Positions 10,273 through 63,386 of a DNA stretch of 64,000 bases are shown piece after piece. The notes beneath the pieces were generated by a model, which did not search any database, was not told the origin of the DNA, and was given only the letters and a program-made list of their open reading frames with translations. The stretch comes from Octopus sinensis (lineage: Eukaryota), in assembly GCF_006345805.1 (NCBI RefSeq), contig NC_042999.1:117924001-117988000 (forward strand), read 5' to 3'. The position numbers were made by a program, and so were the translations under genes. Position 1 is the stretch's first letter, and each line of letters begins with the position of its first letter.

Positions 10273-10488
10273 ATTCTTTTCTACTCTAGGCACAAAGCCC
10301 GAAAATTGGGGGGAGGGGGCCAGTCGATTAAATCGAACCCAGTACGCCACTGGTACTTAATATATCGATCCCGAAAGGATGAAAGGCAAAGTCAACATCG
10401 GTGGAATTAGAACTCAGAACGTAAAAACAGACGAAATATCGCTAAGCATTTTGCCCGGCGTGCTAAATTTTCTGCCAGCTCACCGCCT
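10273..10488 (-). mobile_element. SINE family 2
   Basis: Minus strand starts GGCGGTGAGCTGGCAGA, has B-box-like GAGTTCTAATTCC and tail TGTGCCTAGAGTAGAAAAGAAT. Homologous copies at 16779, 50240 and 60270. Confidence 0.8.
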
Positions 10489-10569
10489 TCATTAGTCAAT
10501 ATATTGGAATAACGTTTGAGAAATACAGGCGTTGTAACATAGAAAACTAACAAATAGTAGAGGGGTTGA

Positions 10570-19330: not shown

Positions 19331-19373
<43 letters not shown>

Positions 19374-19375
<2 letters not shown>

Positions 19376-19823
19376 CGTGGCTGTCTGGTAAAAAGCTTGC
19401 TTCTCAACCACATGGTTCCGTGTTCAGTCCCACTGCGTAGCACCGTGGGAAAGTGTCTTCTACTATAGCCTCGGGTCGACCAGAGTCTTGTGAGTGAACT
19501 TGGTAGACGGAAACTGAAAGAAGCCCGTCGTATATATGTATATATATATGTGTGTGTGTGTGTCTGTGTGTGTATGTGTGTGTGTGTGTATGTGTGTGTG
19601 TGTGTGTGTGTGTGCCTGTGTTTGCCTTCCCACCAACATCGCTTGACATCTGATGCTGGTGTGTTTACGTCCCCGTAACTTAGCGGTTCGACAAAAAGAG
19701 TACCGTTAGCATAAGTACTAGGCTTACAAAGAATAAGTCCTGGGGTCGATTTGCTCGACTAAAAGGTGGTGCTCCAGCATGGCCGCAGTCAAATGACTAA
19801 AACAAATAAAAGAATAAAAGAAT
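19374..19823 (+). mobile_element. SINE family 1
   Basis: Collinear with the 14351 copy and lies after a (TA)n run. Confidence 0.9.
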
Positions 19824-31910: not shown

Positions 31911-33418
31911 CTGCAGAGAGATTAAACTAACGGTTGAAAAACGGCGTCTTGCTAACCGCATACTGCTGTCAAAGATACTACGTATAATCCCCAGATAATA
32001 TTAAGTTTAGAGCTACATTACTTTAAAACAGCTTTAACATCCTACCAACCGTATTTTACAGCTTTATCTGGGAAATTGGAGACTCATTAAAAGTTTTCAA
32101 AGAATTTTTTTCCTTTAGATCACTCAATCTATTCTAATGAGTAAAAGAATATTTTTATATATTTTCTTAGTTATAAATGTCACATTAAAATCTATGCTTC
32201 TTATCAAACGACTTGACCGCCGTGTATTTCAACTTACTAGAAATAGTTGCCAAATCACCACCAAATAACTACCAACTACAATAACCACGCACTACACTGC
32301 GGTCTTTTAAAAGGTACACACTGTATAATGTTCAATGAATTTTGTTTAAAAATCAAATGGAGTCGATTAGAAAACCATTGATAATCAGCCTTTTTGATCT
32401 GGACTGTATAGGGCTAAACAGCAACAATAACAAAACCGATGAGAAAAGTCAAGGAAGCCAAAAGTTGAGCATCTGCGTGTTCCACACAATCTGCAAGGAT
32501 GACTAGCCACTTGTCCCTTAAATTTTACACTATCGTCTTAGAAAATGTTACGACATATTAAACAATGTAGTACTATATTACATTATGTTTGAATATAATC
32601 AATAATAGTTTGGTTTGATTAGGTCTAGTATCAAGGTAGCTAACTACTACCACTAGAACGTCTACAACTATGACAACTATGAATGCAACAACTAAAACAC
32701 AATTTTCTAACAGTAGTACAGGACCACAAATTTTAGGTGATCAAGCATTCATTCTAGGAGTCTTTTATCGACCCTCGTAGGAATGAAGAGTCTTGTGCTA
32801 CAATGACAATAATTCTAATCTAGTGCATTTTAAGCTTTGGGGTTGAAATAAACTAATCCAGTAATATGTAATGATAATCTTTATATATATAAAACTGAGA
32901 ATATGTATCTGTCTGTCTGTCTGTCTGTGTGTTTCCCTAAAACTTGAGAACTACACAACCAATTTCATTCAAATTTTACACATGCCTTACTTAGGGTCCA
33001 TGTAGTTTCGTGGGCAAAAAGAAATGTTCAACTTTTTGCCTAGGGCGAGCCCATAGCAATATCATATCTTCTCCACTATTTCAGTAGTACATGTTAAAAG
33101 TAAACAAAAAACATTTCTCTATTTTATGTCAGATACTTTCACTTTAACATAAAAAATAATAATAACAATTGAAGTATATGTAGTAAGTTTAATTAAAATC
33201 AAAAAAGTATAATATAATCGTAACATAAAAAAAGTAAAAATAGCAATTGGTATAAAATTGCATCCGTGACTTGAACTGAAAAGTGGTTTCTCATGAATGG
33301 GAATAATTAAAAATAAAATTAGCCTGCAGAAATGGAATAGTCCAGATGGATAATAAAAGATTAAATAAAGAAAAACTATTGTCTATAAAGTATACAATGT
33401 AGAGAAAAAAGAGATTTT

Positions 33419-35193
33419 CACCCACGGCGGAAATACCCAAGTGTGTTGTTATTGTGACTAGACGGAATTTTGTTGTGTAATTGATAATTATCGCGCGAGG
33501 CGTTGCCTCTCGTGTGGAAACCTTCCGAAGAGGTGAATTGACCCTCTAGTCATGGCGACTTACGCGGGGGTCACGGGAAAAAGAAGTAATGATTGCTCGA
33601 TAGTCGTGAAGGATGTTTTCTTTGAGAAGAATAAACTCAAAGAATACGAAAAGCTATTCAAAAGGGAGGGTGATAGCGTGAAGCTAATCCCCCCCGCGAA
33701 AGCAAAAGAGGACAAAGAAAACAAAACTGTAACGTATAGAACCCAGGACAAAAGTACAAAGAAACTGGCAAGAGTGGAGATAGCAGAGATCGAAAAATGT
33801 CTGGGAGACATAATGGATAAATCGACCTACGTGAGTAGAGGAAAAAAATTTGGTACGGTGGAGGTGAGATGTGCAACGGAAGAAATTGCAGCCTCACTGG
33901 CTACCACTGTTCTAAGAGGCGGAAACATTCATAATGTGGCCCTCATACAAGGGAAGAAGAGGGGTCCGGGTTAAAATCCCGATATACCCCCAGAAATAAA
34001 AACAGAGTGGCTGGCACAGCTATTCTGGGAGCAGCAGAAGAGGAAGTGGAGGTGGAATCCTTTAAGGAGTCCAATGCAGTAAACTGGAGAGGATATGGGT
34101 AGAACTGTGTTTGATGGCCAAAAAAGAGGACATTGAAAGGTTCCCCTACAGAATAGAAATCGAAGACGAGAAAACCCTCAGTGTAATTGTAGAGGGTAGA
34201 AAGCCAAACTGCTACTTGTGCGGGACAAGGGGGGCACATTAAAAAAGAGTGCCCGCTATACGAATTCATAGCGGAGTACGAGCAGGAACTTGAAGAAAGG
34301 AAGAATAAGGTAAATGAAAAAGAAAACATAGAAAAGGAGACAAAACAACAAGAGAAGGAAATAATAAGTCAACGAAAGAAAAAGATATAAAAGAAAAAGA
34401 AGAAATGGAACCAAAACAGAGTCAGGAAAAGAAAAAGGAAAAGAAACAACAGGAAAAAAACAAGAGAGAGATCAGAATCAACGAAAGAAAAGACGGACGC
34501 ACACAAAAAGAAAAAGAAAAGGAACATAAAACACGAGAGAAAGAGAGAACAGACAAAGACCAAAAGACAAGAGAAGGAGAGAAGAAAGAAGAAAAGAAAG
34601 CAAAAGAGAGAAAGAGAGAAACAAAGAGAGGAGAACAAGGAAGAAGTAAGCCCGAAAAGAAAAACGAGGGAAAACGTAGGACGAAAACAAGATTACTACA
34701 AGTTAATAACCTTCCATTTCACCCCTGAAATGAAGGAATTGACATGTAGTACGGAGGGACATGTGTGGGTCAACAGGATGACTGATCAGTGCAGGAGATG
34801 CTCTGATCCCCGAAGAAAGAGTCGCTGAGTTCCTCAGAGCAGCTGGAGAGAGTGTAATTTTTTACACGGGTGTTCGAATGAAGAGCGGCTGCCTGAGGGC
34901 TCAGTGATTGACTTTAGAGACTTGAAAGGTATTATGGAATACGTATAAAATTGTGAGAAGAGAGAGAAGAAAGAAGAAAAAAAAAAAAAAGAAAATATTG
35001 TAAAATATATGTGACGAAAATGTAACCTCTCGATTTCGGGGATCGAGTGGGCATTTACATCTCATTGTAAATATTCTTTCATATGTCATTTTTACTTTTA
35101 ATTTTTTCCTTTTCTTGTCATTTCGCTTTCTTAATTTAAGTTCCTCGATTGTATTGTCCCCTCTATGTTCGCCCCTTGTGGGTAATAATAAAA
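33419..35193 (+). mobile_element. ORF1-only non-autonomous retroelement, family A, unit 1
   Basis: Junction motif, structured 5' UTR, one ORF1-like gene and the shared 47-nt tail. Confidence 0.85.
33552..34948 (+). CDS. Family A ORF1/Gag-like protein: CCHC knuckle, E/K-rich linker, C-terminal domain (frameshifted)
   Basis: MATYAGV...RGKKFGTVEVRC...VEGRKPNCYLCGTRGHIKKECP...DLKGIMEYV*, assembled across indels and copies. Homologous to ORF1 at 44724. Confidence 0.75.
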
Positions 35194-36980
35194 CACCACG
35201 GCGGAAATTTACCCAAGTGTGTTGTTATCTGTGACTAGACAGGAATTTTGTTGTGTAAATTGATAATTATCGCGCGAGGCGTTTGCCTCTACGTGTGGAA
35301 ACCTTCCGAAGAAGGTGAATTGACCCTCTAGTCATGGCGACTTACGCGGGGGTCACGGGAAAGAGAAGTAATGATTGCTCGATAGTCGTAAAGGATGTTT
35401 TCTTTGAGATAAGAAAACTCAAAGAATACGAAAAGCTATTCAAAAGGGAGGGTGATAGCGTGAAGCTAATCCCCCCCGCGAAAGCAAAAGAGGACAAAGA
35501 AAACAAAACTGTAACGTATAGAACCCAGTGACAAAAGTACAAAGAAACTGGCAAGAGTGGAGATAGCAGAGATCGAAAAATGTCTGGGGGAGACATAATG
35601 GATAAATCGACCTACGTGAGTAGAGGAAAAAAATTTGGTACGGTGGAGGTGAGATGTGCAACGGAAGAAAAATTGCAGCCTCACTGGCTACCACTGTTCT
35701 AAGAGCGGAAACATTCATAATGTGGCCCTCATACAAGGGAAGAAGAGGGGTCCGGGTTAAAATCCCGAATATATACCCCCAGAAATAAAAACAGAGTGCT
35801 GCAACAGCTATTCTGGGAGCACAGAAGAGGAAGTGGAGGTGGAATCTTTAAGGAGTCCAATGCAGTAAACTGGAGAGGATATGGGGTAGAACTTGTTTGA
35901 TGGCCAAAAAGAGGACATTGAAAGGTTCCCCTACAGAATAGAAATCGAAGACGAGAAAACCCTCAGTGTAATTGTAGAGGGTAGAAAGCCAAACTGCTAC
36001 TTGTGCGGGACAAGGGGGCACATTAAAAAAGAGTGCCCGCTATACGAATCATAGCGGAGTACGAGCAGGAACATGAAGAAAGGAAGAATAAGGTAAATGA
36101 AAAAGAAAACATAGAAAAGGAGACAAAACAACAAGAGAAAGGAAATAATAAGTCAACGAAAGAAAAAGATATAAAAGAAAAGAAAGAAATGAACCAAAAC
36201 AGAGTCAGGAAAAGAAAAAGGAAAAAGAAACAACAGGAAAAAACAGAGAGAGATCAGAATCAACGAAAGAAAAGACGGCACACAAAAAGAAAAAGAAAAG
36301 GAACATAAAACACGAGAGAAAGAGAGAACAGACAAAGAACCAAAAAGACAAGAGAAGGAAGAAGAAAGAAAAGAAAGCAAAAAAGAGAGAAAGAGAAACA
36401 AAGAGAGGAAACAAGGAAGAATAAGCCGAAAAGAAAAACGGAAAAACGAGGGAAAACGTAGGACGAAAACAAGATTACTACAAGTTATAACCTTCCATTT
36501 CACCCCTGAATGAAGGAATTGACATGTAGTAGTAAGGAGGGACATGTGTGGGTCAACAGGATGACTGATCAGTGGCAGGAGACTGCTCTGATCCCCGAAG
36601 AAAGAGTCTCGCTGAGTTCCTCAGAGCAGCTGGAGAGAGTGTAATTTTTTACACGGGTGTTCGAATGAAAGAGCGGCTGCTGAGGGCTCAGTGATTGACT
36701 TTAGAGACTTGAAAGGTATTATGGAATACGTATAAAATGTGAGAAGAAGAGAAGAAAGAACAAAAAAAAAAAAAAAAGAAAATATTGTAAAATATATGTG
36801 ACGAAAATGTAACCTCTCGATTTCGGGGATCGAGTGGGCATTTACATCTCATTGTAAATATTCTTTCATATGTCATTTTTACTTTTAATTTTTTCCTTTT
36901 CTTGTCATTTCGCTTTCTTAATTTAAGTTCCTCGATTGTATTGTCCCCTCTATGTTCGCCCCTTGTGGGTAATAATAAAA
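35194..36980 (+). mobile_element. Family A unit 2 (ORF 35334-36735, frameshifted)
   Basis: Near-identical to unit 1. Starts CACCACGGCGGAAA. Confidence 0.85.
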
Positions 36981-38800
36981 CACCACGGCGGAAATTTACC
37001 CAAGTGTGTTGTTATCTGTGACTAGACAGGAATTTTGTTGTGTAAATTGATAATTATCGCGCGAGGCGTTTGCCTCTACGTTGGAAACCTTCCGAAGAAG
37101 GTGAATTGACCCTCTAGTCATGGCGACTTACGCGGGGGTCACGGGAAAAGAAGAAGGAATGATTGCTCGATAGTCGAAAGGATGTTTTCTTGAGAAGAAA
37201 ATAAACTCAAAGATACGAAAAGCTATTCAAAAGGGAGGGTGATAGCGTGAAGCTAATCCCCCCCGCGAAAGCAAAAGAGGACAAAGAAAACAAAACTGTA
37301 ACGTATAGAACCCAGGACAAAAGTACAAAGAAACTGGCAAGAGTGGAGAGATAGCAGAGATCGAAAAATGTCTGGAGAACATAATGGATAAATCGACCTA
37401 CGTGAGTAGAGGAAAAAAATTTGGTACGGTGGTACGGTGGAGGTGAGATGTGCAACGGAAGAAATTGCAGCCTCACTGGCTACCACTGTTCTAAGAGCGG
37501 AAACATTCATAATGTGGCCCTCATACAAGGGAAGAAGAGGGGTCCGGGTTAAAATCCCGAATATACCCCCAGAAATAAAAACAGAGTGGCTGGCAACAGC
37601 TATTCTGGAGCAGCAGCAGAGAAGAGGAGTGGAGGTGGAATCCTTTAAGGAGTCCAATGCAGTAAACTGGAGAGGATATGGGGAGAGTGAACTGTGTTGA
37701 TGGCCACAAAAGAGGACATTGAAAGGTTCCCCTACAGAATAAAATCGAAGACGAGAAAACCCTCAGTGTAATTGTAGAGTAGGTAGAAAGCCAAACTGCT
37801 ACTTGTGCGGGACAGGGGGCACATTAAAAAAGAGTGCCCGCTATACGAATTCATAGCGGAGTACGAGCAGGAACTTGAAGAAAGGAAGAATAAGGTAAAT
37901 GAAAAAGAAAACATAGAAAAGGAGACAAAACAACAAGAGAAAGGAAATAATAAGTCAACGAAAGAAAAAGATATAAAAGAAAAGAAAGAAATGGAACCAA
38001 AACAGAGTCAGGAAAAGAAAAAGGAAAAAGAAACAACAGGAAAAAAACAAGAGAGAGATCAGAATAAAGAAAAAGAAAAGACGGCACACAAAAAGAAAAA
38101 GAAAAGGAACATAAAACACGAGAGAAAGAGAGAACAGACAAAGAAAAAACCCAAAAAAAAAAAAAAAAAGACAGAGAAGGAGAAGGAGAAGAAGAAAAGA
38201 AGCAAAAAAGAGAGAAAGAGAGGAACAAAGAGAGGAGAACAGGAAGAAGTAAGCCCGAAAAGAAAAACGAGGGAAAACGTAGGACGAAAACAAGATTACT
38301 ACAAGTTAATAACCTTCCATTTCACCCCTGAAATGAAGGAATTGACATGTAGTACGGAGGGACATGTGTGGGTCAACAGGATGACTGATCAGTGGCAGGA
38401 GACTGCTCGATCCCCGAAGAAAGAGTCGCTGAGTTCCTCAGAGCAGCTGGAGAGAGTGTAATTTTTTACACGGGTGTTCGAATGAAAGGCGGCTCTGCCT
38501 GAGGCTCAGTGATTGACTTTAGAGACTTGAAAGGTATTATGGAATACGTATAAAATTGTGAGAAGAGAGAGAAGAAGAAAGAAAAAAAAAAAAAAAAAAG
38601 AAAATATTGTAAAATATATGTACGAAAATGTAACCTCTCGATTTCGGGGATCGAGTGGGCATTTACATCTCATTGTAAATATTCTCATATGTCATTTTTT
38701 ACTTTTAATTTTTTCCTTTTCTTGTCATTTCGCTTTCTTATTTTAAGTTCCTCGATTGTATTGTCCCCTCTATGTTCGCCCCTTGTGGGTAGTAATAAAA
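36981..38800 (+). mobile_element. Family A unit 3 (ORF 37120-38553, frameshifted)
   Basis: Near-identical to unit 1. Tail variant GGGTAGTAATAAAA. Confidence 0.85.
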
Positions 38801-40607
38801 TCCCACGGCGGCGGAAATTTACCCAAGTGTGTTGTTATCTGTGACTACTAGACAGGAATTTGGTTGTGTAAATTGATAATTATCGCGCGAGGCGTTTGCC
38901 TCTACGTGTGGAAACCTTCCGAAGAAGGTGAATGACCCTCTAGTCATGGCGACTTACGCGGGGTCACGGGGACGGGAAAGAGAAGTAATGATTGCTCGAT
39001 AGTGGAAAGGATGTTTTCTTTGAGAAGAATAAACTCAAAGAATACGAAAAGCTATTCAAAAGGGAGGGTGATAGCGTGAAGCTAATCCCCCCCGCGAAAG
39101 CAAAAGAGGACAAGAAAAACAAAACTGTAACGTATAGAACCAGGACAAAAGTACAAAGAAACTGGCAAGAGTGGAGATAGCAGAGATCGAAAAATGTCTG
39201 GGAGACATAATGGATAAATCGACCTACGTAGAGTAGAGGAAAAAAATTTGGTACGGTGGAGGTGAGATGTGCAACGGAAGAAATTGCAGCCTCACTGGCT
39301 ACCACTGTTCTAAGGCGGAGGAAACATTCATAATGTGGCCCTCATACAAGGGAAGAAGAGGGGTCCGGGTTAAAATCCCGAAATACCCCCAGAAATAAAA
39401 ACAGAGTGGCTGGCAACAGCTATTCTGGGAGCAGCAGAAGAGGAAGTGGAGGTGGAATCCTTAAGGAGTCCAATGCAGTAAACGGGAGAGGATATGGGGT
39501 AGAACTGTGTTTGATGGCCACAAAAGAGGACATTGAAAGGTTCCCCTACAGAATAGAAATCGAAGACGAGAAAACCCTCAGTGTAATGTAGAGGGTAGAA
39601 AGCCAAACTGCTACTTGTGCGGGACAAGGGGGCACATTAAAAAAGAGTGCCCGCTATACGAATTCATAGCGGAGTACGAGCAGGAACTTGAAGAAAGGAA
39701 GAATAAGGTAATGAAAAAGAAAACATAGAAAAAATAGAAAGGACAAACAACAAGAGAAAGGAAATAATAAGTCAACGAAAAAAAAGATATAAAAGAAAAG
39801 AAAGAATGGAACCAAAACAGAGTCAGGAAAAGAAAAAGGAAAAAGAAACAACAGGAAAAAAACAAGAGAGAGATCAGAATCAAACGAAAAGAAAAGACGG
39901 CGGCACACAAAAAGAAAAAGAAAAGGAACAAAAAAACACGAGAGAAAGAGAGAACAGAAAAGAACCAAAAAGACAAGAGAAGGAAGAAGAAAGAAAAGAA
40001 AGCAAAAAGAGAGAAAGAGAGAAACAAAGAGAGGAGAACAAGGAAGAAGTAAGCCCGAAAAGAAAAACGAGGGAAAACGTAGGACGAAAACAAGATTACT
40101 ACAAGCTAATAACCTTCCATTTCACCCCTGAATGAAGGAATTGACATGTAGTACGGGGAGGGACATGTGTGGGTCAACAGGATGACTGATCAGTGGCAGG
40201 AGACTGCTCTGATCCCCGAAGAAAGAGTCGCTGAGTTCCTCAGAGCAGCGGGGAGAGAGTGTAATTTTTTACACGGGTGTTCGAATGAAAGAGCGGCTGC
40301 CTGAGGGCTCAGTGATTGACTTTAGAGACTTGAAAGGTATTATGGAATACGTATAAAATGTGAGAAGAGAGAGAAGAGAGAAAAAGAAAAAAAAAAAAAA
40401 AAAGAAAACATTGTAAAATATATGTGACGAAAATGTAACCTCTCGATTTCGGGGATCGAGTGGGCATTTACATCTCATTGTAAATATTCTTTCATATGTC
40501 ATTTTTTACTTTTAATTTTTTCCTTTTCTTGTCATTTCGCTTTCTTATTTTAAGTTCCTCGATTGTATTGTCCCCTCTATGTTCGCCCCTTGTGGGTAGT
40601 AATAAAA
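38801..40607 (+). mobile_element. Family A unit 4 (ORF 38946-40356, frameshifted)
   Basis: Near-identical to unit 1. Tail variant as in unit 3. Confidence 0.85.
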
Positions 40608-42551
40608 TCCCACGGCGGAAATTTACCCAAGTGTGTTGTGAGTTATTTTTTGCATGTGAAACTTTGGAAAAAAACTGTTAAAAAAAATTGTCAAAAATTG
40701 AATCGCGCGAGGCGTTTGCCGCTGCGTGTTTGAACCTTTTATAGAAGGTGTGTCGACCCTCAAGTCATGGAGACTTACGCGGGGGTCGCCACAACAAAAA
40801 GTGACGAGTCACTTAGAATAAAAGAAGTGTTCTTTAGAAAAGAACAATTGAAGGAATACGAGAAGTTCGTCAAAAGGGAGGGTGACAGCGTGAAGCTGGT
40901 CCCGCCTGTGGAAACAATAGAAGAAAAAAATAACAAGACGATAACGTATAGAACGCAAGATAGAAACACGAGAAAACTGGTGAGAGTGACGATTGAAGAA
41001 ATAGAGAAATGTCTGGGGGACATCATGAAAAAAGCGACTTTTGTAGACAGAGGAAAGAAATATGGTACGGTGGAGGTGAGATGCGCAACAAGGAAAGAAG
41101 TGGCGGCCTCATTGGCTTCCACTGTCCTGAAAGCGGAAAATTTCACCATGTGGCCGACGTATAAAGGAAGACGAGGGGTACGGGTAAGAGTCCCAAAGGT
41201 GCCCCCAAATATTAAAACAGAAATGCTGGTAACAGCCATTATTGGGGCAGCAAAAGAGGAAGTAGAAATAGGGTCAATTAAGGAGACGAACGTTGTAAAT
41301 TGGAAGGGATTCGGAGTCGAGTTGTGGCTGATGGCCACAATTGAAGACATCGAAAGATTTCCCTTCCAAATAGAAATAGAAAACGAAAAAACAATTAGTG
41401 TAATAGTGGAAGGCAGAAAACCGAATTGCTACCTGTGCGGCTCAAGAGGGCACATAAAAAAGGAATGTCCGCTGTATGAATTCACAGCGGAGCAAAAAGA
41501 GACACAAAGTGGAGAGAAGGAAAACGAACACGAGGAAAGAACAGCGAAAACAAGGAAAAGGAAATAACGGAGAAACAACAAGAGAAGGGAAGTAACAGCG
41601 CACTGAAGGAAAATGAAAACAAAGGGAAGAAGATAGTAGAAAAGGAGCAAAATTCACAGGGTGCAGAAGTAGAGGAGAAGGAGCCAAGGCAGAAGCAAGA
41701 GAAAGAAAAGGAAAGTACATTAAAGGAAAGAGAAAAAGCAGGAAAAGAACAAGAGAAGGAACAGAACCAAGAGAAAGGAAAAGATGGTATGCAAAAAGGA
41801 AAAGAAACAACAGGAAAGGAACTTAAGGCACAGGGTAGAGAGACGGCAGACAAAGAGCCAAAAAGACAAGAGAAGGAAAAAGAAAGAAGAGAAAGCAAAA
41901 AGAGAGAAAGAGAGAAACCGAGGGAGGAGAAAAAAGAGGAAGTAAGTCCTAAGAGAAAAACTAGAGAAAACGCAGGTACGAATAGAAAATTCAAATACTA
42001 TGGAACGTTGATCCATCACAAACACTGTGAGGAGATGGAAAATTTAATAAGCGAAACAAACGGATATACGTGGGTCAGGATGGGCACCGAATGGAAAGAA
42101 ACAGGTGCACTCGTCCACGAGAACGACGCCGAGGCGTTCATCGAGGCAGCTGGCGAGAACGTGTTAAAACATATGAAATGCCGACTTCCAAGGTGGCCTC
42201 GAACGATGGAAATTTACTCAGATTTGGTAGACATAATGGAGTATATATAAAAGAAAAGGTATTATGAAAACTTTAATTTGGAAATGATAAAAGAACTTTA
42301 AATTCGGAAAAAAAAAAAAAAAAAAAAAAGAATGTTGAACTTTGTAAAACTTTTTGAAATGTATGTTGAAAATGTATAAAATGTTTTATTTGAAAATATT
42401 GTTGACGAATAAAAATAAATGACGAAATGTAACCGCTCGATTACGGGGATCGAGTGGGCATTGCACCACATTGTACAAACTTCATAATTCATTATTCATT
42501 TTCCCGATTGTATTGTCCCATCTATGTAGCCCCTAGTGGGTAATAATAAAA
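40608..42551 (+). mobile_element. ORF1-only non-autonomous retroelement, family B, unit 5
   Basis: Same architecture as family A with diverged sequence. Tail at 42506-42551. Confidence 0.85.
40767..42250 (+). CDS. Family B ORF1/Gag-like protein (one frameshift near 41532)
   Basis: METYAGV...CYLCGSRGHIKKECP...DLVDIMEYI*. Confidence 0.8.
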
Positions 42552-44488
42552 CACCACGGCGGAAATTTACCCAAGTGTGTTGTGAGTTATTTTTTGCATG
42601 TGAAACTCTGGAAAAAAACTGTTAAAAAAATTGTCAAAAATTGAATCGCGCGAGGCGTTTGCCGCTGCGTGTTTGAACCTTTTATAGAAGGTGTGTCGAC
42701 CCTCAAGTCATGGAGACTTACGCGGGGGTCGCCACAACAAAAAGTGACGAGTCACTTAGAATAAAAGAAGTGTTCTTTAGAAAAGAACAATTGAAGGAAT
42801 ACGAGAAGTTCGTCAAAAGGGAGGGTGACAGCGTGAAGCTGGTCCCGCCTGTGGAAACAATAGAAGAAAAAAATAACAAGACGATAACGTATAGAACGCA
42901 AGATAGAAACACGAGAAAACTGGTGAGAGTGACGATTGAAGAAATAGAGAAATGTCTGGGGGACATCATGAAAAAAGCGACTTTTGTAGACAGAGGAAAG
43001 AAATATGGTACGGTGGAGGTGAGATGCGCAACAAAGGAAGTGGCGGCCTCATTGGCTTCCACTGTCCTGAAAGCGGAAAATTTCACCATGTGGCCGACGT
43101 ATAAAGGAAGACGAGGGGTACGGGTAAGAGTCCCAAAGGTGCCCCCAAATATTAAAACAGAAATGCTGGTAACAGCCATTATTGGGGCAGCAAAAGAGGA
43201 AGTAGAAATAGGGTCAATTAAGGAGACGAACGTTGTAAATTGGAAGGGATTCGGAGTCGAGTTGTGGCTGATGGCCACAATTGAAGACATCGAAAGATTT
43301 CCCTTCCAAATAGAAATAGAAAACGAAAAAACAATTAGTGTAATAGTGGAAGGCAGAAAACCGAATTGCTACCTGTGCGGCTCAAGAGGGCACATAAAAA
43401 AGGAATGTCCGCTGTATGAATTCACAGCGGAGCAAAAAGAGACACAAAGTGGAGAGAAGGAAAACGAACACGAAGGAAAGAACAGCGAAAACAAGGAAAA
43501 GGAAATAACGGAGAAACAACAAGAGAAGGGAAGTAACAGCGCACTGAAGGAAAATGAAAACAAAGGGAGAAGATAGTAGAAAAGGAGCAAAATTCACAGG
43601 GTGCAGAAGTAGAGGAGAAGGAGCCAAGGCAGAAGCAAGAGAAAGAAAAGGAAAGTACATTAAAGGAAAGAGAAAAAGCAGGAAAAGAACAAGAGAAGGA
43701 ACAGAACCAAGAGAAAGGAAAAGATGGTATGCAAAAAGGAAAAGAAACAACAGGAAAGGAACTTAAGGCACAGGGTAGAGAGACGGCAGACAAAGAGCCA
43801 AAAAGACAAGAGAAGGAAAAAGAAAGAAGAGAAAGCAAAAAGAGAGAAAGAGAGAAACCGAGGGAGGAGAAAAAAGAGGAAGTAAGTCCTAAGAGAAAAA
43901 CTAGAGAAAACGCAGGTACGAATAGAAAATTCAAATACTATGGAACGTTGATCCATCACAAGCACTGTGAGGAGATGGAAAATTTAATAAGCGAAACAAA
44001 CGGATATACGTGGGTCAGGATGGGCACCGAATGGAAAGAAACAGGTGCACTCGTCCACGAGAACGACGCCGAGGCGTTCATCGAGGCAGCTGGCGAGAAC
44101 GTGTTAAAACATATGAAATGCCGACTTCCAAGGTGGCCTCGAACGATGGAAATTTACTCAGATTTGGTAGACATAATGGAGTATATATAAAAGAAAAGGT
44201 ATTGTGAAAACTTTAATTTGGAAATGATAAAAGAACTTTAAATTCGGAAAAAAAAAAAAAAAAAAGAAATGTTGAACTTTGTAAAACTTTTTGAAATGTA
44301 TGTTGAAAATGTATAAAATGTTTTATTTGAAAATATTGTTGACGAATAAAAATAAATGACGAAATGTAACCGCTCGACTACGGGGATCGAGTGGGCATTG
44401 CACCACATTGTACAAACTTCATAATTCATTATTCATTTTCCCGATTGTATTGTCCCATCTATGTAGCCCCTAGTGGGTAATAATAAAA
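42552..44488 (+). mobile_element. Family B unit 6
   Basis: Near-identical to unit 5 with a few substitutions. Confidence 0.85.
42710..44190 (+). CDS. Family B ORF1/Gag-like protein (one frameshift near 43568; consensus of units 5 and 6 ~493 aa)
   Basis: The 288-aa and 153-aa ORF-track pieces join when the base present in unit 5 is restored. Confidence 0.8.
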
Positions 44489-44723
44489 CACCACGGCGGA
44501 AATCAATTTTTTGCGTTATTAGTAAGTTGATATATAATTTTGCTCTCGTACTATTATCTCTGTTATTATATACTGTTGATCTACCTGTTTTTGTCTATTG
44601 TTGTCTAACGGACGAAGCCAGCCTTCGCGCGAAGACTTCGCGTTGGTGTTCCCCCCCTCAGTGGGGGAAAACTACAAGTAATTTGGATTTACCAAAGGCT
44701 TGTTATAAAGCCATTTGTTCAAG

Positions 44724-46094
44724 ATGGAGTCCCCCATCACTTATTCGCCCGTGACGAGCGAGGATGAATACCCGGCGTTGTCGCCAAGTAAAAAAGAGGC
44801 GTTGTCGCCAAGAAAAAAAGAGGCGCTGTCGCCGAAGAAAAAAGAGGCGGCGTCGCCCAAGAAAATGGAAAAACCAGTACCAGCATCAACTCCAGCAAAA
44901 AAATTCGCTGAAGTGGCTGGGAAAAAGATCAAAAAAATAAATATAGACAATTTTAAAAAATTTGCAGACTGCGTAAAAAAAGAAGGCACAGAAGTGACTG
45001 TGGCCACAAACATACAAATACATGACGATATAGAGAAAAAAAGAATAATATATAAAACTTACGACACAACGAAAAAAATGATCCAAAAAATCGAAGAAAA
45101 AAAAATAGAGTCTTGTCTAAAACCGTTTATGGACAAAATATAAACAGAGGAAAAAGATACGGCACAGTGGAGGTGCGTTTTACTACGGAGGATATAGCGA
45201 AGAAACTATCGATGGAGCCGATCAAAGCGGAAAACATTGTCTTACTACCATTGTATAAAGGAAAAAGGACGTCAAAAATTTCAATGAACAACATACCGCC
45301 AGAGGCTGATGCTGAATGTCTGGTGGCAGCAGTGATGGTAGGTCTGGAGGAAAAAATAAACATCCTCCAGGCCACAGTGGAGGAAGAGGATTTTTGGAAA
45401 GGCCAAAAAATAGTGATAGCCATTCAGGCGGAGGTGCAAACACTGGAAGAAATTCCAGAAACGGTAAAGATTAGTGAAGACGAGAAAATAACAGTGTTCG
45501 TGGAGGGCAGGAAACCGAGGTGCTTCGGCTGCGGCAAGAAGGGGCATGTAAGGGCGGAATGCCAACCCCAACCCAAACCGCAGGAAGCACCTAAGCCAAA
45601 AGAAAAAGAAGACAATGTGTCACCAGAAGCAGCGTCAGATGGCCCAGAAGGGAAGACTGAAGGTGTGGAGGTGACGGTGACAGCAGAACCAGCGGCGGGG
45701 AAAAAAAAAGAGCGAGGAAAAGATAAATGAGGAGGGGTGGAAAAAAATTATCGGAAAAAAAAAGAAAAACGGAAACCACCCCTCCCAGAGTAATTTTAAA
45801 AAAGAAAAAAGAGTCAATGAACTCATATATGGCCGTAAAGGCAGCAAATAGCAGACTCGGAAACGTGTTGGCAGCCATGGCCAAAGTGGAGAAAGTAGAG
45901 AAAAAAAACGACTTTGTAATTTACAGAATAGGCCGGAAGGATTACGGCGGATAAAGTCAGAATTCTTCCATGACGTAGGCCCACTTAGATTGGATGTGAC
46001 ATCTCCACATATATTCGAGGGCCTACGTCAGACTCCCCCACGAGGCCCAGAAAAAGAGTTAGAAGAACAAGAGAAAACCGAACCACTGATATAA
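44724..46094 (+). CDS. ORF1p nucleic-acid-binding protein (frameshifted)
   Basis: SPxK repeats, RGKRYGTVEVRF, VEGRKPRCFGCGKKGHVRAEC (CX2CX4HX4C). The 3' end is inferred across frameshifts. Confidence 0.8.
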
Positions 46095-46102
46095 GGTAAG
46101 TA

Positions 46103-49100
46103 ATGGATTACATTTATGTTGGTTGTTTGAATGTGCGCGGCCTGGGAGCAGACTGGAAGCAAGGTCGCTTCCTGCATGATATCAGGTCGCGTAATTTAGA
46201 TGTTATTGTTGCTACAGAAACCCGGTTAGAGGGGCCAAGAGGTCTACTCCCGCTGTTTGACGGCTACGAGAGTTTTTTATCTCCTGGCAGTCCTACAGGC
46301 GGGAGTGGGGTGTTGGTCCTATTAAAAAGAAACCGGGTTTCTGAGAAAAAGTTAATTTTTGCAGATCCAGAAGGTAGGCTGGTCGTCATGGATTTGACGT
46401 TCAGTAACGGTAAAGTTATCAGACTGGTTGCAATTTACGCACCCAACCATACAGGGCAAAGTGATTATTTTCGTGAACTAGAAAACTTTCTTGGTACTTC
46501 GCATTCATTAGTGGTGCTAGGAGACTTTAACACAATTTGCAAAGCGGATGTAGATTATGTTGGCTCGTGTCCAGATAGAAAAGGCAACAGTGGCTTCATG
46601 GAACTGCTAAGCCGCTTTGAGCTAGCAGATCCTTATAGGCTGGAATTTCCGAACGCTCCATTGTGGACATGGTCAAACAGCGACGGATCTTCCAGGTCAT
46701 ATTTAGATAGAATACTAATTAGAAAAGTAGACAGTAAAATAGCTAAGTGTCCACAGTTTTACCCGATCAGCTACAGTGATCATAAAATGGTCACTTGTAA
46801 GCTTGACATAGATAAGGTTAAAAATAGAGGATCCGGTTACTGGAAACTTAATACGTCCCTTTTGGCGATTAAGGAGTACAAAGACCGGATTAGGAATATA
46901 ATTCAGAGGGCACTATCTGGTACCATCATTATAACAAATGGTGGTACGCCCTCAAACGAGCCATCAAGTTTGAGTCTATTAGATATAGCATAGGAGTAGT
47001 GGCTAGAGAGGCTAGAAGGGAAACTACTCTAGTTAAGGAATTAGAGGAAGCCATGAAAACTGGCTCTGCGGCTCAGGTGGCGTCCAAGAGACTGGTGTTA
47101 AACCAGCACCTCGAGGCCAAACACATGGGCTGCATTGTCAGGGCTAGAATCCGTCATATGGGATGTGAAGGAATCAACGCCGTGAGATGGGCCCGAGTGG
47201 TGGAAGCTCAGCATGGTAACGATGCCACGATTCGATCTTTGACGAACCAACAAGGTGAGTTGATAAACGAACCCGAGGAGATGTGTGAGGCCTTTCAGGA
47301 GCACTTCGCTCAGCTTTTCGGTGAGTGCGGCGGACTGGATAGGAGGAGGGCCTTTACGGACCTACTCGACGGTCTGCCGCGCTTATCGGGGCGAGATGCG
47401 GAGGGCTGTGAAGGGCCAATCACGCCTGGGGAGGTGTTTGAGGCAATGGCGGACTGCGGCGCGGGCAAGGCGCCGGGTTTGGATGGTCTGCCCTATGAGT
47501 TATATAAGAGTATGCCAGACTTGTTCGGGCACCTACTGGCGGAGGTCTATGCGAACTGGCAGCAGAACGGGCTTATACCCAGATCTGTGCGCCGGGGAGT
47601 AGTGACTCTCGTCAGAAAGGACCCGAGCAAGGGGGAGTGCATTGATAATTTCAGGCCCATCACTCTGCTAAACACAGAGTTGAAGATTTTGGCCAAAGTG
47701 TTATCGAAAAGATTGGCGCGTGTCGCGGATGGTCTGATCGGAGAGGCACAGACATGTGCCGTTCCGGGCAGATCCATTCAGGATAATCTCCATCTAATGC
47801 GGTACACTATAGAGGGGTTTAATAGTGATTCTGGCAAGGGTGGGGCACTGGTCCATTTAGACCAATCTAAAGCTTTTGATAGGGTCGACCATCGTTACCT
47901 GGTGTCTGCCCTGGCACAGTTCGGGCTGAGCCTTGGCTTCCTCAGGTGGATTATCCAAATTTATGATAACATCGACTCGGTAGTTCGGGTGAACGGCTTC
48001 TTGTCGAAGCCGTTCAAAATCAAACGCTCGGTTCGTCAAGGGTGTCCGCTCTCCCCGCTTTTGTACGTGATGGCTCTTGAGCCATTACTGCGAAAACTGA
48101 GCGGCATCCCGAGACAGCCAGGTAATGGAAAATCAGTGTCAGCGTACGCGGATGACATCACCATCATCGTAACCGAAATGGACCACCTATGTAAAGTAGG
48201 CAAGGCCATAGAGGTTTACGAGACGGTGACAGGAGCAAAAGTTAATCGCGAAAAGTCAGTCGGCTTGCAACTCGGCACCTGGAGAGGCAAGTCGATGCCT
48301 CCTGACAGCGTCGTGGGACGTTGGACGGAGGGTCCGATTAAACTGCTAGGGGTCTGGTTCGGTCCAGACCTCCAAATAGAGAAGAATTGGGGCGAGGTAA
48401 CGAGCAAGGTGGCTGCAGTAGCCAAGACCTGGTCTTGGCGGTGGCTATCCCTGAAAGGGAGGGCGGAGGTGGCCATGTGTTTATCGCATCGGTTATCACC
48501 TACCGCCTTTCCGTCGTTCCTTGCCCTGATTCGTGGTTGATCAAGTTGGAAAGACAGCTCTTCTACTTCTTGTGGAAGGGCGGGAAACCACTTGTGAAAC
48601 GCTCTACTTGCTGTCAACAACCGTTAAAGGGTGGGCTAGGGATGCCTTGGCTGATGATGCGCAGACATGCGCTGAGGTTAAGACATCTGTGGCTCTACCT
48701 GGATGGTGAACGGGTGTGGTCTTCGCTAGCAAAACTGATGTTTCCCAAGTTCACTAGTTTCGGTGGATGGGAAACCTGGCTGAATCGTAGATCGAAACTT
48801 GGTACTTGGTACACGGAGTGTCGCAAGGCTCTCCTGCTATTCCGTCGCTCGGGCAACGCCTGCGGTGGGGGTTCCACCACATTCCTCTATAGAGGGTTGG
48901 TAGAGGCGGAATGTGAAGATACCTTGGGGGAAACCCTAGGTCTCGACGATAATCAGCTGGCCAGTCTGTTCCGACGTACGTTCGAGCCGAGGACACTGGA
49001 CAACTTCCAGAAGTCCCTGGCATGGCAATGCTACAGAGGAGCTCTACCTGTTCGGGATAAACTCGCAAGGCACGGTGGCCAAGACAGTCCGATATGTCCA

Positions 49101-49496
49101 AGATGCGGGCGGGATAGGGAAACCGTCCCGCACGCGATTGTTCATTGTCCGGACGTGTCTGAGGTGTGGGTTTATGCCGAACACCTGTTGTCAGGTACAC
49201 GAAGAGTACAGCTGTCGACTGAGTCGATTACAAAAATTGACCCACCGGATTTCCTCGTGAATGAAGGTAAGTTTCGTTTTCTCGTTGTAGTAGCAATTGC
49301 GAAAGAGGTGATATGGAAGACGAGAATGAAAGGTTTACAGTCAGGCAAGTTCATCTCCGGCCCTGGTTTGATGAACTATTTCATCTTTCACCTGAAAAGG
49401 AAGATAGGGCTGGAATGAATATGCCTGACTAGGAGAGTGTATGAAGAACGATGGAAGGATGTAGCACGAAAGTTGCGAGTGAAAGATACAACATAA
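46103..49496 (+). CDS. ORF2p: APE endonuclease, reverse transcriptase, C-terminal zinc finger (two frameshifts; in-frame TGA at 49416)
   Basis: LNVRGL, ETRL, GDFN, YLDRI, SDH (APE). PGLDG, FRPITLLN, DQSKAFD, RQGCPLSP, YADD (RT). CPRC...ETVPHAIVHC (Zn finger). Confidence 0.93.
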
Positions 49497-50239
49497 ATGT
49501 AATACCAAGTGCAACCAAAAGTATCAGTGGGGAGGCGGGGCTCGTGGGGTCCGAGCTAAACCCGCACCCACTCCACCCGTAACGTCTTCCGGTCTGTCCC
49601 ATCATTCGATTTCTGTCCATTTATTGTAATTCATGAAAATTTTTAAAATTCGATTTAGTGTAAAAACCCATTCGTTTGTCTGACCCAGATTGTATTGTCC
49701 CATCTATGTTCGCCCCTTGTGGGTAATAATAAAATCACATGGAGGAAAGCACCTTCGAAAAGTGTCTTGGTGTGACCATGAAAGATATCTAATCAGAGGT
49801 GGTAAATTCGCCACAATAGAAGCAAGGTTCGAGTCAACGGAGCGTACAAGGGAGTACTCGACTCGAACTTGCAAAGTGGAAATATTTTATATCTGGGACG
49901 TAGGACGTCCCGGAAAAAGTTAAATATGCCCCCCTCCCGAAGTAGATGTAGGCTGGATTGTAGCCACATTTCTATACAAGAGGGAGGACAAGATACAATT
50001 GATTGTAATTACAAGAGACGGGCTAACAATTCCAGTCCGTTATATATTTTGAGTATTGTTATCACTAGCGATATCAAGATATAACTTTGTATTTTGTATT
50101 TTATGTGTAGATGTATATATATAGATGTACATGTAATATGTACACATATATATACACACATTTATACATGCACTAGCACTATGACCCGGCAACGACGGGT
50201 CTTTAATGCTAGTAATGTAATATTTGTAGCACTATTTAA

Positions 50240-50341
50240 GGTGGTGAACTGGCAGAATCGTTAGCGCGCCGAGCGAACTGCTTTGCGTTATTTCGTCCGT
50301 TTTTACGTTGTGAGTTCATATTCCGCCGAGATTGACTTTGC
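50240..50341 (+). mobile_element. 5' half of SINE family 2
   Basis: GGTGGTGAACTGGCAGAATCGTTAGC...GAGTTCATATTCCGCCGAG. Confidence 0.75.
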
Positions 50342-61640: not shown

Positions 61641-62349
61641 CGATGATGATGATGATGATTTTTTATTTACCACCAGGGTGAAAAATGAGGGGAATAATAC
61701 AAAGAAAGATGTCAAGTTTAGGGGTTTACATACAATGAAATGTGATAGAATAAATATATATATGAAAATAAATGTATAGAAAGTATAGACAGTATAAAAC
61801 AAGACAGAGAAGAGAAGCATACATGGTATACTATAGTAAAACTAAAATAAAATAAAAGTGTGTGTGTGTGTGGGGGGGGGGTGATGATGATAGTGTTGGG
61901 GTCCTCCTCACACAAGAGGACCTCTAGGGGTAATCGTGTAATTCCTTGAACAGCAAGGGCAGGTGCCCTCTTTAATTCCTGTTCTGTTGATATTCTTGTT
62001 GTTGATGTTGCTGCTGCTGCTGCTGCGACTGCCGCTGCTGCTGTTGCTGATGATGATGGTGGAGGTGGTGGTGGTGGTGGTGGTGGTGGTGGTGATGTTA
62101 TTACTGCTGTCATTTCTGATGCTTGGTAATGACTGAAATGTCTGGTGTGTCAGTTTGATTCTTACTATATATGTTTGATGGGTCAGTTAGTTAGTTAGTT
62201 AAACGACAATACCCTTGTCAGTCAGCCACCTCTCTCCTTTTCCTCTCACCTCCTTGTCTCCTTCTTCTCCTATTTTTTTCTACTGTCTGTCGGTATGTTT
62301 CTCTTCCCCCTTTTAGTCTGTCCATAATTCCCTCCTTCTCTCTCTCTCA

Positions 62350-62387
<38 letters not shown>

Positions 62388-63386
62388 CAATTTTTATCTT
62401 TCTCATGCACACTTACACACACACTCACACACACACACACGGACACACACACACGCGCGCACACAAACATACGCACACAGATACGCATAATTGCCACATT
62501 TACGCTTTGGGTTTATTAATCGAGTCACTACTACATTTGATCGCTTTTCGCCTGCTTCCTTCACTCCTACACTCTTTCCCGCACAGTGTCTCCATCTGTC
62601 TGTCTACCTGCTTGTCTGTTTGTCTGTCCATCTCTGTGCGTCTCTCTCTCTTTCTTTCTTCCTTCCTCTCTCTCTCTCTCATTTATACTTTCACTTTCTG
62701 GCAAACTGCTTCTTTGTGTCTCGGGCATATTATATCTAATACACATATACACCCAGTTCTCTCTCTCTCCCTCTACTTCTCTCTGTCTCTCTGTCGCTGT
62801 TTCTCTCTTTCGTTCACTCTCCCGCCTATGCATTTTCTACCATTCGTACTGCCACCTGTTTTCGGCACTCGCGTTACACTGACCGTACAGCACAATAACA
62901 ACAACCGCCAAGTCACAACTGCTGCCATCATTACAACGCTCTTTCTACTAGCACACCGCTACCATCAGCATCATGCAACTACAATTACGGCCATCAGCCC
63001 CTTACATCACAACCACCATAGCCCTGCTAACTTTACAGTAATACCACTACAACCACCGCCAACAACAACAACAGCACTACCTCCACTACAATACCAACAC
63101 TATCACATTACAATTAGGCACTATCACTCCAAACACCTGTTCCCACCCTAGTACTGACACCTTACCGCTTCTATAACCTCGACTGCCACCATCACCACCA
63201 TCACTACTTTAACCTTGGTATCATTAATACGATCACAAATTGCTAAAACAAGAACAACAGTAACAACAAAGAGAACTTAGTAGGAACCAACAAAATAAAA
63301 GTAACAAAAAAAAAATAAACATTCAAACCGAACGAAAACAAGCTTTATCAACAACTAACGCAAGACTACCACGACCACTACCACTT

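Follow-up and report, generated by a model that had tools for sequence, protein, structure and literature searches.

A Tx1-like LINE and its ORF1-only partners insert at a defined site of a non-autonomous Helitron in Octopus sinensis

That Tx1 LINEs target other transposons is already known. Tx1L, a two-ORF LINE with an APE-type endonuclease, occupies a defined site of the non-autonomous DNA transposon Tx1D in Xenopus laevis (PMC4494074, PMC1950540). In crocodilians Tx1-Mar and SINEU target Mariner-N4_AMi, Tx1-9_AMi targets Harbinger, and Tx1-8_Crp and Tx1-4_AMi insert in LTR elements (Kojima 2015, PMC4494074); the part of that account available to us names no Helitron as target. HAL1 (half-L1) is a non-autonomous LINE derivative encoding ORF1 only (PMC5753468). 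A short endonuclease motif alone does not explain the precise targeting of R1Bm (PMC1919474), and in R2 flanking target sequence in the RNA helps integration (PMC4494074). In a literature search that covered these sources in part, we found no Helitron target or LINE-derived landing pad described for Tx1 LINEs, and no paper combining Tx1, Helitron and target preference.

Non-autonomous animal Helitrons begin with TC, end in a hairpin followed by CTAG and sit between A and T; they often show a 5' microsatellite of the (CTGT)n type and captured cargo. R1Bm RNA reads through into the flanking target. The window, i.e. the whole stretch of 64,000 nucleotides analysed here, contains an array of four 1.8-kb A units, two 1.9-kb B units and one 5.2-kb Tx1-like LINE (Tx), which an earlier sequence-only reading had placed inside an intact-ended non-autonomous Helitron. 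The features are as follows.

32878..33417, + strand: left arm of the Helitron, with TC end, CTGT repeat (32909-32928) and an A-rich tract just upstream of the target
33350..33417, + strand: 5' part of a decayed Tx1-lineage ORF1 fragment (start approximate, placed by homology from the Helitron copy L007)
33418..33434, + strand: left junction, where a target-like 5' leader belonging to the first unit stands in place of the Helitron target bases normally found there; each unit is preceded by the last 13 nt of this leader (33422-33434, CCACGGCGGAAAT)
33422..35195, + strand: unit A1, ORF1-only non-autonomous Tx1-like element
35196..36982, + strand: unit A2
36983..38802, + strand: unit A3
38803..40609, + strand: unit A4
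40610..42553, + strand: unit B1, ORF1-only, about 72% to A, with a CCHC zinc knuckle
42554..44490, + strand: unit B2, 99.7% to B1 by substitutions
44491..49736, + strand: full-length Tx1-like LINE, ORF1 from about 44724 and ORF2 from 46103
49737..49750, + strand: ACATGGAGGAAAGC, the Helitron's own target bases on the downstream side of the nick
49737..50010, + strand: 3' part of the decayed ORF1 fragment (end approximate; tblastx E 1.3e-10)
49737..50212, + strand: right arm of the Helitron
50183..50212, + strand: Helitron 3' hairpin and CTAG, followed by T

The Helitron was confirmed as first read. An A at 32877 precedes the TC at 32878-79, and the 3' stem GACCCG (50183-50188)/CGGGTC (50196-50201) stops 7 nt before the closing CTAG at 50209-50212, after which a T follows at 50213. 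The (CTGT)n repeat, originally put at 32878, is a (CTGT)x5 at 32909-32928, 31 bp inside the 5' end. Flanks estimated at about 540 and 480 bp measure 540 and 476 bp, leaving a non-autonomous element of ~1.04 kb without the array. When folded as DNA, the 41-nt 3' end reaches -8.4 kcal/mol (z -3.95), with 0 of 200 shuffles as good.

The two arms are found in high copy number (1932 left-arm and 1997 right-arm first-look candidates). Among the best 29 left-arm loci other than the window, 21 run on into the right arm within a few bases, so that the arms belong to one Helitron, as the sequence-only reading had expected of its flanks once joined: 17 join at or near the right-arm start (4 of them in part only) and 4 at right-arm position 279, representing a deleted form. 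The other 8 are broken at the same point by an element of the LINE family. Correspondingly, the left arm precedes 22 of the best 29 other right-arm loci and the 3' end of the family the other 7. Membership of the Helitron1 type is indicated by the TC and CTRR termini, the GC-rich hairpin near the 3' end, an architecture shared by the 3' ends of 8/20 RepHel stretches, and insertion between A and T. The 5' end reads A|TC in 30/32 fetched copies, where the search motif already demanded T[CT] and only the A was free to vary; the 3' end reads CTAG|T in 54/61, with CTAG in 56/61 and a following T in 58/61. No target site duplication is visible in the flanks in the window, of which the left is single-copy, and no empty allele was seen. 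A genome search for RepHel gave 150 scored matches; extended end sequence in common with this Helitron, as an autonomous partner would have, is absent from all 20 stretches fetched. One locus with a similar 5' end (L233) belongs to a separate ~510-bp non-autonomous element. An Rfam scan of 31000-52000 had no match that passed the gathering scores, and what it did list were miRNA matches driven by microsatellites; the target therefore corresponds to no known RNA gene. In two DNA runs the unique left flank enters the Helitron end by 20 bases, too short for bridging.

In the LINE of the window ORF2 is split into three frame pieces carrying APE endonuclease, reverse transcriptase (RT) and zf-RVT, and other Tx copies have unbroken ORF2 frames of 1131-1132 aa. 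The ORF2 domains (N-terminal APE endonuclease PF03372, RT PF00078, C-terminal zinc finger PF13966) and the CCHC zinc knuckle in ORF1 (PF00098 in unit B2, the motif also being visible in the Tx, A and C translations) are those of the Tx1 clade. The best solved relative is L1 ORF2p, and the only informative name among 120 listed RT matches was 'Transposon TX1 uncharacterized 149 kDa protein' (39%). A, B and a third family, C, are HAL1-like in encoding ORF1 only and sharing their 3' end with the autonomous LINE; in Tx, A and B this end is AATAAAA plus 2 nt without poly(A). Partners also occur as solo insertions with duplications (L017, L130, L177, L169). A protein search with ORF1 returned only 9 octopus proteins, of A/B type. 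Contigs of four presumed-RNA runs cover the LINE 3' end, and none of those listed bridges the LINE-Helitron junction.

Sequence comparison places the insertion target within a piece of decayed ORF1 that the Helitron carries and that comes from this same LINE lineage. L007, a natural empty copy, aligns with a Tx copy at 58.7% over 254 nt (E 2e-7), and tblastx gives three colinear HSPs (E 1.3e-10); the reversed sequence reached 0.12 and the best of 40 local shuffles 7e-4. We did not find a donor family for the fragment; the closest match was a B-like unit with about 32-43% amino acid identity in short blocks.

The Tx family targets the Helitron, as the sequence-only reading had offered as one of its options, and the preference is strong but not exclusive. 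Genome-wide we found at least 101 exact LINE-to-Helitron junctions on many contigs, and 926 exact empty sites of the long Helitron form. In a sample taken in positional order, 27/55 loci lie in the Helitron (24 of 52 fetched and 3 of 3 further C3 loci) and 28/55 outside; the refuting condition set by the sequence-only reading, a majority of insertions outside Helitrons, is therefore borderline by locus. Taking units instead, Helitron-anchored loci hold 68 of the first 100 termini. A share of more than 20% of flanks in one sequence type has served to call a LINE target-specific (PMC4494074); the 27/55 loci, and 24/30 for the C family with arrays included, exceed it. Among the 30 best Tx 3' ends, the Helitron target follows immediately in 18, another unit in 9 and other sequence in 3; for the C family the first 30 of 79 termini divide into 16 directly in the Helitron, 8 in arrays and 6 elsewhere. 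The same Helitron base has received different cargo (Tx, A, B, C and truncated Tx), and L131, L138, L161 and L299 are 5'-truncated copies that arrived independently at precisely this site.

Off-target copies are located at short ACRTG-like sites and are mostly 5'-truncated. Target duplications of 14-19 bp were detected at 12/25 off-target loci scanned, with the column motif A-C-A-T-G-T; of the other 13, no duplication came up in 7, and in 6 the matches were short or misplaced and were set aside. Likeness to the target ends after about 5 nt, position 6 being T in 16/28 and G, the target base, in 3/28, which speaks against long pairing of a 3' tail. Full-length copies make up 21/24 Helitron loci and 4/28 loci outside (Fisher p 1.5e-7; 7/28 outside and p 6e-6 when near-full copies are counted), and in the C family 24/24 in the Helitron and 0/6 outside.

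A short form of the Helitron lacks about 310 bp. In both forms the insertion lies 7 nt downstream of the same A-rich tract. The nick falls at ^ACATGG in long-form copies and at ^ATTCCAG in short-form ones, and the target duplications measure 12-19 bp; the natural target variants differ only downstream of the nick. We found 19 junctions at ^ATTCCAG and 133 exact short-form sites. All 13 ATTCCAG loci with a readable left junction are short-form and none long-form, 6 more being unreadable. In a tree, Tx copies from short-form sites form an older grade and those from long-form sites a nested younger clade (support 0.76). The two lineages differ at 16/240 endonuclease and 5/270 RT positions. The endonuclease hairpin loop predicted to confer specificity, which aligns to L1 T192-S202, is identical in both; the nearest change is at the next-but-one residue, the others being in flanking loops. 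The unchanged loop leaves the endonuclease changes as a candidate cause of the target switch. Short-form Helitrons look slightly older (95.4% identity vs 96.2% for the long form), and timing may therefore account for some of the lineage split.

We consider it probable that Tx, A, B and C entered at one base inside an ORF1 relic of their own lineage in an older Helitron through target-primed insertion that happened repeatedly and independently, the LINE endonuclease likely directing it. The Helitron, which would have captured a piece of Tx1-lineage ORF1, as the homology suggests, spread it to roughly two thousand sites, and the deleted form spread as well. The endonuclease would read the short nick motif together with the upstream A-rich tract; such bipartite recognition is suggested because the older grade uses ATTCCAG in short-form copies alone, while the younger clade is restricted to the long form. 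The switch from short to long form would then likely have followed the endonuclease changes. Full-length RNA would start with a short copy of the target, and this leader probably pairs with the target overhang and allows full-length integration to be completed, so that the truncation of most off-target copies would be accounted for. Later elements would probably join at the 5' side, because only the left junction retains the upstream tract; arrays would thus grow polarly, and the window holds seven such units.

Other explanations were weighed against this one. Hitch-hiking, i.e. amplification of a few insertions as rolling-circle cargo of the Helitron, had been proposed from the two intact ends, and would fit with the RepHel-coding Helitrons with long open frames in the genome and with the window's spacer variant and A-B-Tx order, which are common to three arrays. 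However, a star tree of right arms, 38 of them filled and 34 empty, has the two kinds intermingled and no filled clade, with mean identities of 93.8% (filled-filled) and 94.8% (empty-empty); for comparison, the mean difference between the 3' coding ends of Tx copies at long-form sites is 1.35% (n=29). The arms in the window have no relative above 94%, its left arm is 7% apart from that of the C1 array, which has the same leader, with no variants in common, and loci with a common leader variant generally share no distinctive left-arm variants. The only identical filled copies are one pair (C7), and these two also have more than 2.7 kb of outer flank in common at either end; they are therefore a segmental duplication or an assembly duplicate. 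Copying of a whole array along with a Helitron arm is contradicted by both the left-arm divergence and these flanks, and we found no near-identical filled Helitrons at unrelated A|T sites. Hitch-hiking is thus not supported and in our view highly unlikely, though less firmly excluded at short-form loci, where Tx divergence is 2.7%, half that of the Helitron (5.3%), with no correlation between the two (rho 0.13, p 0.56, 7 loci). Slightly less probable again is a passive safe harbour, with generic insertion at ACRTG and a Helitron excess left by selection against insertions elsewhere: such selection against long copies would also leave mostly short ones off target, but the excess is confined to a single base and orientation instead of extending across the Helitron or other neutral repeats, and amounts to about thousandfold over other motif sites by rough arithmetic with base composition assumed; moreover, the identical ATTCCAG sequence is used in short-form copies but not in long-form ones. 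That the Helitron may act as a safe harbour is a reasonable supposition. A chance near-match in one Helitron, the other option of the sequence-only reading, is favoured by a short and common nick motif, and we give it practically no weight: of two defined bases, one has at least 101 exact junctions and the other 19, and 16/30 C-family termini come on top. The single-base preference likely reflects active homing and not hitch-hiking.

A rather unlikely but better supported alternative concerns the guide. The endonuclease would nick any Y^ACRTG-like site and pairing of the target-like leader, possibly a read-through 3' tail, would select among them, the target being inherited via the leader and not the protein. 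Leaders hold several bases from upstream of the nick, their variants follow A subfamilies across unlinked loci, and the two full-length off-target copies with Helitron target bases at their 5' end (L144, L169) point the same way, as do the near-confinement of full-length copies to the target, the specificity loop common to both lineages, and an AATAAA end without poly(A), from which transcripts would run into the target. Against this stand the loss of off-target likeness after about 5 nt, the leaderless truncated copies at the exact site, and the Tx1L endonuclease, which alone nicks its target almost exclusively (PMC1950540). For the arrays only, one-event RNA-to-RNA template jumping or later tandem duplication might replace sequential insertion at the left junction, a possibility that we regard as open to considerable doubt. 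Arrays reach 7 to about 17 units with about 90% of Helitron sites empty, and seven units at one site thus require local re-use, template jumping or tandem duplication; units B1 and B2 are 99.7% identical, and the window, C1 and C7 arrays have an A subfamily in common. On the other hand, the C7 and C8 arrays start on the right with the native target and their junctions turn stepwise into variants towards the left, near-identical B units have different, locus-specific junction sequences, and the A units of the window are nearer to those of other arrays than to each other (noisy sequence). Nine arrays have a variant at their left junction; in each of them the variant recurs at the following junction, 8 times exactly and once nearly, and all 8 right ends that were seen carry the native target.

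Returning to independent, endonuclease-directed insertion, we put forward an extension only tentatively: the LINE lineage would own a landing pad derived from its ancestral ORF1 and multiplied by the Helitron, and a heritable RNA leader would decide full-length completion, have enabled the short-to-long switch and make arrays dated records growing at the 5' side. The system also shows one transposon class building the niche of another, out of LINE sequence that it probably captured. It bears on how site-specific LINEs choose and change targets, for which endonuclease motifs are usually too short for precision (PMC1919474). The system is young, with open ORF2 copies, about 120 or more on-target loci and a comparable off-target set, and its two lineages on two natural target variants make endonuclease versus RNA-leader guidance directly testable. 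The octopus Tx system is also an added candidate for full-length, site-directed insertion, and octopus repeat annotation will split or merge such nested elements.

Compared with known non-autonomous Helitrons, the cargo here is a decayed LINE ORF1 piece, and it is the landing site of its own lineage. As in R1Bm and R2, a short endonuclease motif does not in itself account for precision, and target sequence in the RNA would aid integration; those elements belong to a different clade and target rDNA, in contrast to a dispensable transposon in octopus. Families A, B and C resemble HAL1 in encoding ORF1 only; HAL1, however, derives from mammalian L1, whereas the octopus partners are Tx1-like, comprise at least three families and have the target site of the LINE in common. 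The crocodilian elements, as far as described (PMC4494074), likewise combine a Tx1 LINE and non-autonomous partners at a common preferred site in an abundant non-autonomous transposon, with tandem insertions, two preferred regions used by different families, one 5' extension resembling the host transposon, and hitch-hiking weighed and rejected. Their two regions have no recognisable similarity, whereas the octopus sites share an upstream tract whose 7-nt spacing was made by a host deletion; their partners are snRNA-headed SINEs and not ORF1-encoding, and in octopus the host is a Helitron and the elements, at about 1% divergence and with open ORF2 copies, are young. With Tx1L/Tx1D the octopus system shares an APE-type two-ORF LINE at a fixed site in a non-autonomous DNA transposon. 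The host is a rolling-circle Helitron in octopus and piggyBac-type in Tx1D, and the preference is about 50% by locus, compared to near-exclusive for Tx1L; in addition the octopus system has ORF1-only partners, long mixed arrays and a target that lies, by homology, in a LINE-derived relic.

The two arms flanking the array in the window form a single element. Each arm is present in high copy number in the genome, and in most other fetched copies left and right arm are joined directly; in the remaining copies an element of the same LINE family splits the arms at the position seen in the window. The features of the window are as follows:

16061-16737 and 18247-19758: CTG/TGT triplet tracts; with the frame at 18949-19758 they may be exons of a glutamine-rich protein
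18949-19758, minus strand: frame of 269 aa
32878-33417: left Helitron arm, 5' end A|TC at 32877/32878
44774-44865: tandem repeat with a 24-bp unit (3.8 copies), close to the LINE ORF1 start
49737-50212: right Helitron arm, with a 6-bp stem at 50183-50201 and the 3' end CTAG|T at 50209-50213
50231-50341: short dispersed repeat starting 18 bp past the Helitron end, 82% identical to 10386-10496
62195-63151: open frame of 318 aa, no Pfam match, overlapping microsatellites

A natural empty copy measures 1040 bp. The A|TC end was found in 30 of 32 Helitron copies and the CTAG|T end in 54 of 61, and the 3' hairpin folds better than 200 of 200 shuffled sequences. With these ends present and the flanks contiguous elsewhere, the sequence-only reading was right to place the array inside an intact-ended Helitron; the (CTGT)n repeat that it put at 32878 does occur near the 5' end, but 31 bp further in. 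RepHel-coding Helitrons of this genome carry a 3' hairpin of the same design, and no autonomous partner sharing the ends of the window Helitron was found among 20 fetched RepHel stretches. Eight loci (L223, L224, L227, L229, L234-L236, L240) belong to a young family of autonomous Helitrons whose 3' ends are identical and whose RepHel frames reach about 1750 aa; on other contigs such frames go up to 1846 aa. A common variant of the host carries an internal duplication near its 5' end (positions 1-198, then 54 onward; L033, L039, L048, L121, L184 and others) and is targeted just as the plain form. At L055 and L088 CTAG is followed by part of a second Helitron copy that begins some 40 bp upstream of the target and so re-creates an empty target in tandem.

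The arms of the window enclose a head-to-tail array of four A units, two B units and one full-length LINE; their common 3' end terminates two bases after AATAAAA. The LINE encodes an APE endonuclease, RT and zf-RVT, unit B ORF1 alone with a zinc knuckle. The closest named proteins are from Octopus (75-98%) and Argonauta (64%), which makes an octopus genome likely; domain order and a single named match suggest the Tx1 label. A third ORF1-only family, C, is absent from the window and has 79 termini in the genome.

Exact matches to the 23-nt family terminus number 545 in the genome. The first 100 places correspond to 55 loci, of which 52 were fetched in a first pass: 24 are Helitron insertions, 22 of them at the main site and two at a second one, and 28 lie outside. 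The three omitted loci are all Helitron-flanked, giving 27 of 55; by our own count, which covers the interiors of long arrays incompletely, 68 of the 100 termini are in Helitron loci. Genome-wide we found 101 exact element-to-Helitron junctions and 926 exact empty sites. The empty-site pattern fits 17 of the 31 empty sites sampled exactly, which puts the number of long-form sites at roughly 1700 or more, with about a tenth of them occupied. For family C, 16 of the first 30 termini are directly at the site, eight in arrays and six elsewhere. By rough arithmetic with an assumed base composition, the excess at the Helitron site is about millionfold over random bases and about thousandfold over other nick-motif sites. 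Insertion into the Helitron is very likely independent and targeted; targeting was one of two alternatives in the sequence-only reading, the other being a chance near-match. The preference is not exclusive, since 28 of the first-pass loci lie outside. Helitron sites and filled loci seem clustered mid-contig on the large contigs C1 and C2 (G000), with off-target copies nearer the ends.

Full-length copies were found at 21 of 24 Helitron loci versus 4 of 28 other loci, and for family C at 24 of 24 versus 0 of 6. Off-target copies show duplications of 14-19 bp (12 of 25 scanned) and an ACATGT-like motif at their start (28 sites), as expected from target-primed insertion. Three off-target inserts (L123, L132, L145) consist merely of 25-28 bp of the family's extreme 3' end between target duplications of 15-17 bp.

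The array could instead have travelled as rolling-circle cargo of its intact-ended host. In a right-arm tree of 38 filled and 34 empty copies, filled and empty copies are interleaved in a star shape; mean identities are 93.8% (filled-filled) and 94.8% (empty-empty, a set biased to top matches). LINE copies at long-form sites diverge by 1.35% (29 copies) and are therefore younger than their hosts. The cargo varies between loci and includes truncated copies, and none of the top 40 relatives of the window arms exceeds 94%. At short-form loci, where the Helitron carries a deletion, the margin against hitch-hiking is smaller (LINE divergence 2.7% versus 5.3% for the Helitron, uncorrelated, seven loci). 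The sole identical pair of filled copies has kilobases of outer flank in common. We therefore reject hitch-hiking, raised earlier as a possibility, on the interleaved tree, the younger LINE copies and the differing cargo. The pair of matching filled copies corresponds to two near-identical 10-unit arrays 112 kb apart (G000:C7, 96.71-96.75 and 96.83-96.86 Mb; L184-L192); their outer flanks are identical and an N gap lies close by, pointing to a segmental or assembly duplicate. An N gap at L124 (G000:C1:69.56 Mb) is flanked on both sides by the left arm and the start of unit A, probably through an assembly overlap.

The target itself resembles the LINE. Inside the Helitron, the sequence surrounding the site matches ORF1 of the same lineage in three colinear tblastx blocks (E 1.3e-10; reversed sequence 0.12, best of 40 local shuffles 7e-4), with 58.7% DNA identity over 254 nt and the nick inside the matched stretch. 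We are confident that the target is a relic of a LINE ORF1, slightly less so than of the targeting. Frame breaks are similar across five translated Helitron copies, so decay of the fragment likely preceded the spread of the Helitron. A search for the donor family did not find it.

The short form occurs as 133 exact sites and is without the main site ^ACATGG; its deletion shifts the downstream ATTCCAG to 7 nt from the A-rich tract, the spacing of the main site. All 13 of the 19 ATTCCAG junctions with a readable left junction (six are unreadable) have a short-form host, although the same ATTCCAG is present in the long form, which outnumbers the short form about sevenfold (p about 2e-12 for equal sites). 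A tree built from 63 LINE 3' coding ends places the 13 copies from short-form sites in an older grade; nested in it is a younger clade with the 29 copies from long-form sites (support 0.76). Off target, the two older-grade copies start ATT-like and younger-clade copies mostly AC-like. Between the lineages, 16 of 240 endonuclease and 5 of 270 RT positions differ; the endonuclease hairpin loop linked to specificity in L1 and Tx1L (PMC1950540) is the same in both. The restricted use of ATTCCAG together with the lineage split indicates that upstream and downstream sequence both matter. Short-form hosts are slightly older, and age may contribute to the split.

Full-length elements start with a short target-like leader, often in place of the native left-junction bases and reaching several bases upstream of the nick. 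Leader variants track A subfamilies from locus to locus without extending into the Helitron arm. Where an array has a variant left junction (nine arrays), the same variant recurs at the next junction (eight exactly, one nearly); in two long arrays junctions shift stepwise, starting from the native target at the right. The left leader of the window array recurs at each of its six inner junctions, native sequence remaining only at the right end. Seven or more units at one site call for some local effect. Arrays would grow on the 5' side, which has kept the upstream tract; possible alternatives are template jumping and duplication. At the 5' side of arrays (L004, L005, L009, L013, L121, L128, L135) C-family elements have the bases between A-rich tract and nick deleted, not duplicated. 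We lean slightly towards bipartite recognition led by the endonuclease, with the leader assisting completion; the rival is that RNA instead of protein reads the target.

Preference of Tx1-clade LINEs for other transposons is already known: in the accessible part of PMC4494074, Tx1L inserts in Tx1D, Tx1-Mar and SINEU prefer Mariner-N4, and further members prefer Harbinger and LTR elements. The ORF1-only partners A, B and C resemble HAL1, a known ORF1-only derivative (PMC5753468). A repeat study of Octopus vulgaris lists 13 recently active L1-Tx1 families, and the words "target" and "nested" are absent from its available portion (PMC13282606). Neither a Helitron as the target of a Tx1 element nor a LINE-derived target turned up in a literature search that left Repbase and most subscription journals outside. 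The placement of the array in the Helitron is real, targeted and not due to hitch-hiking, and is a variation on the known targeting of transposons by Tx1 elements.
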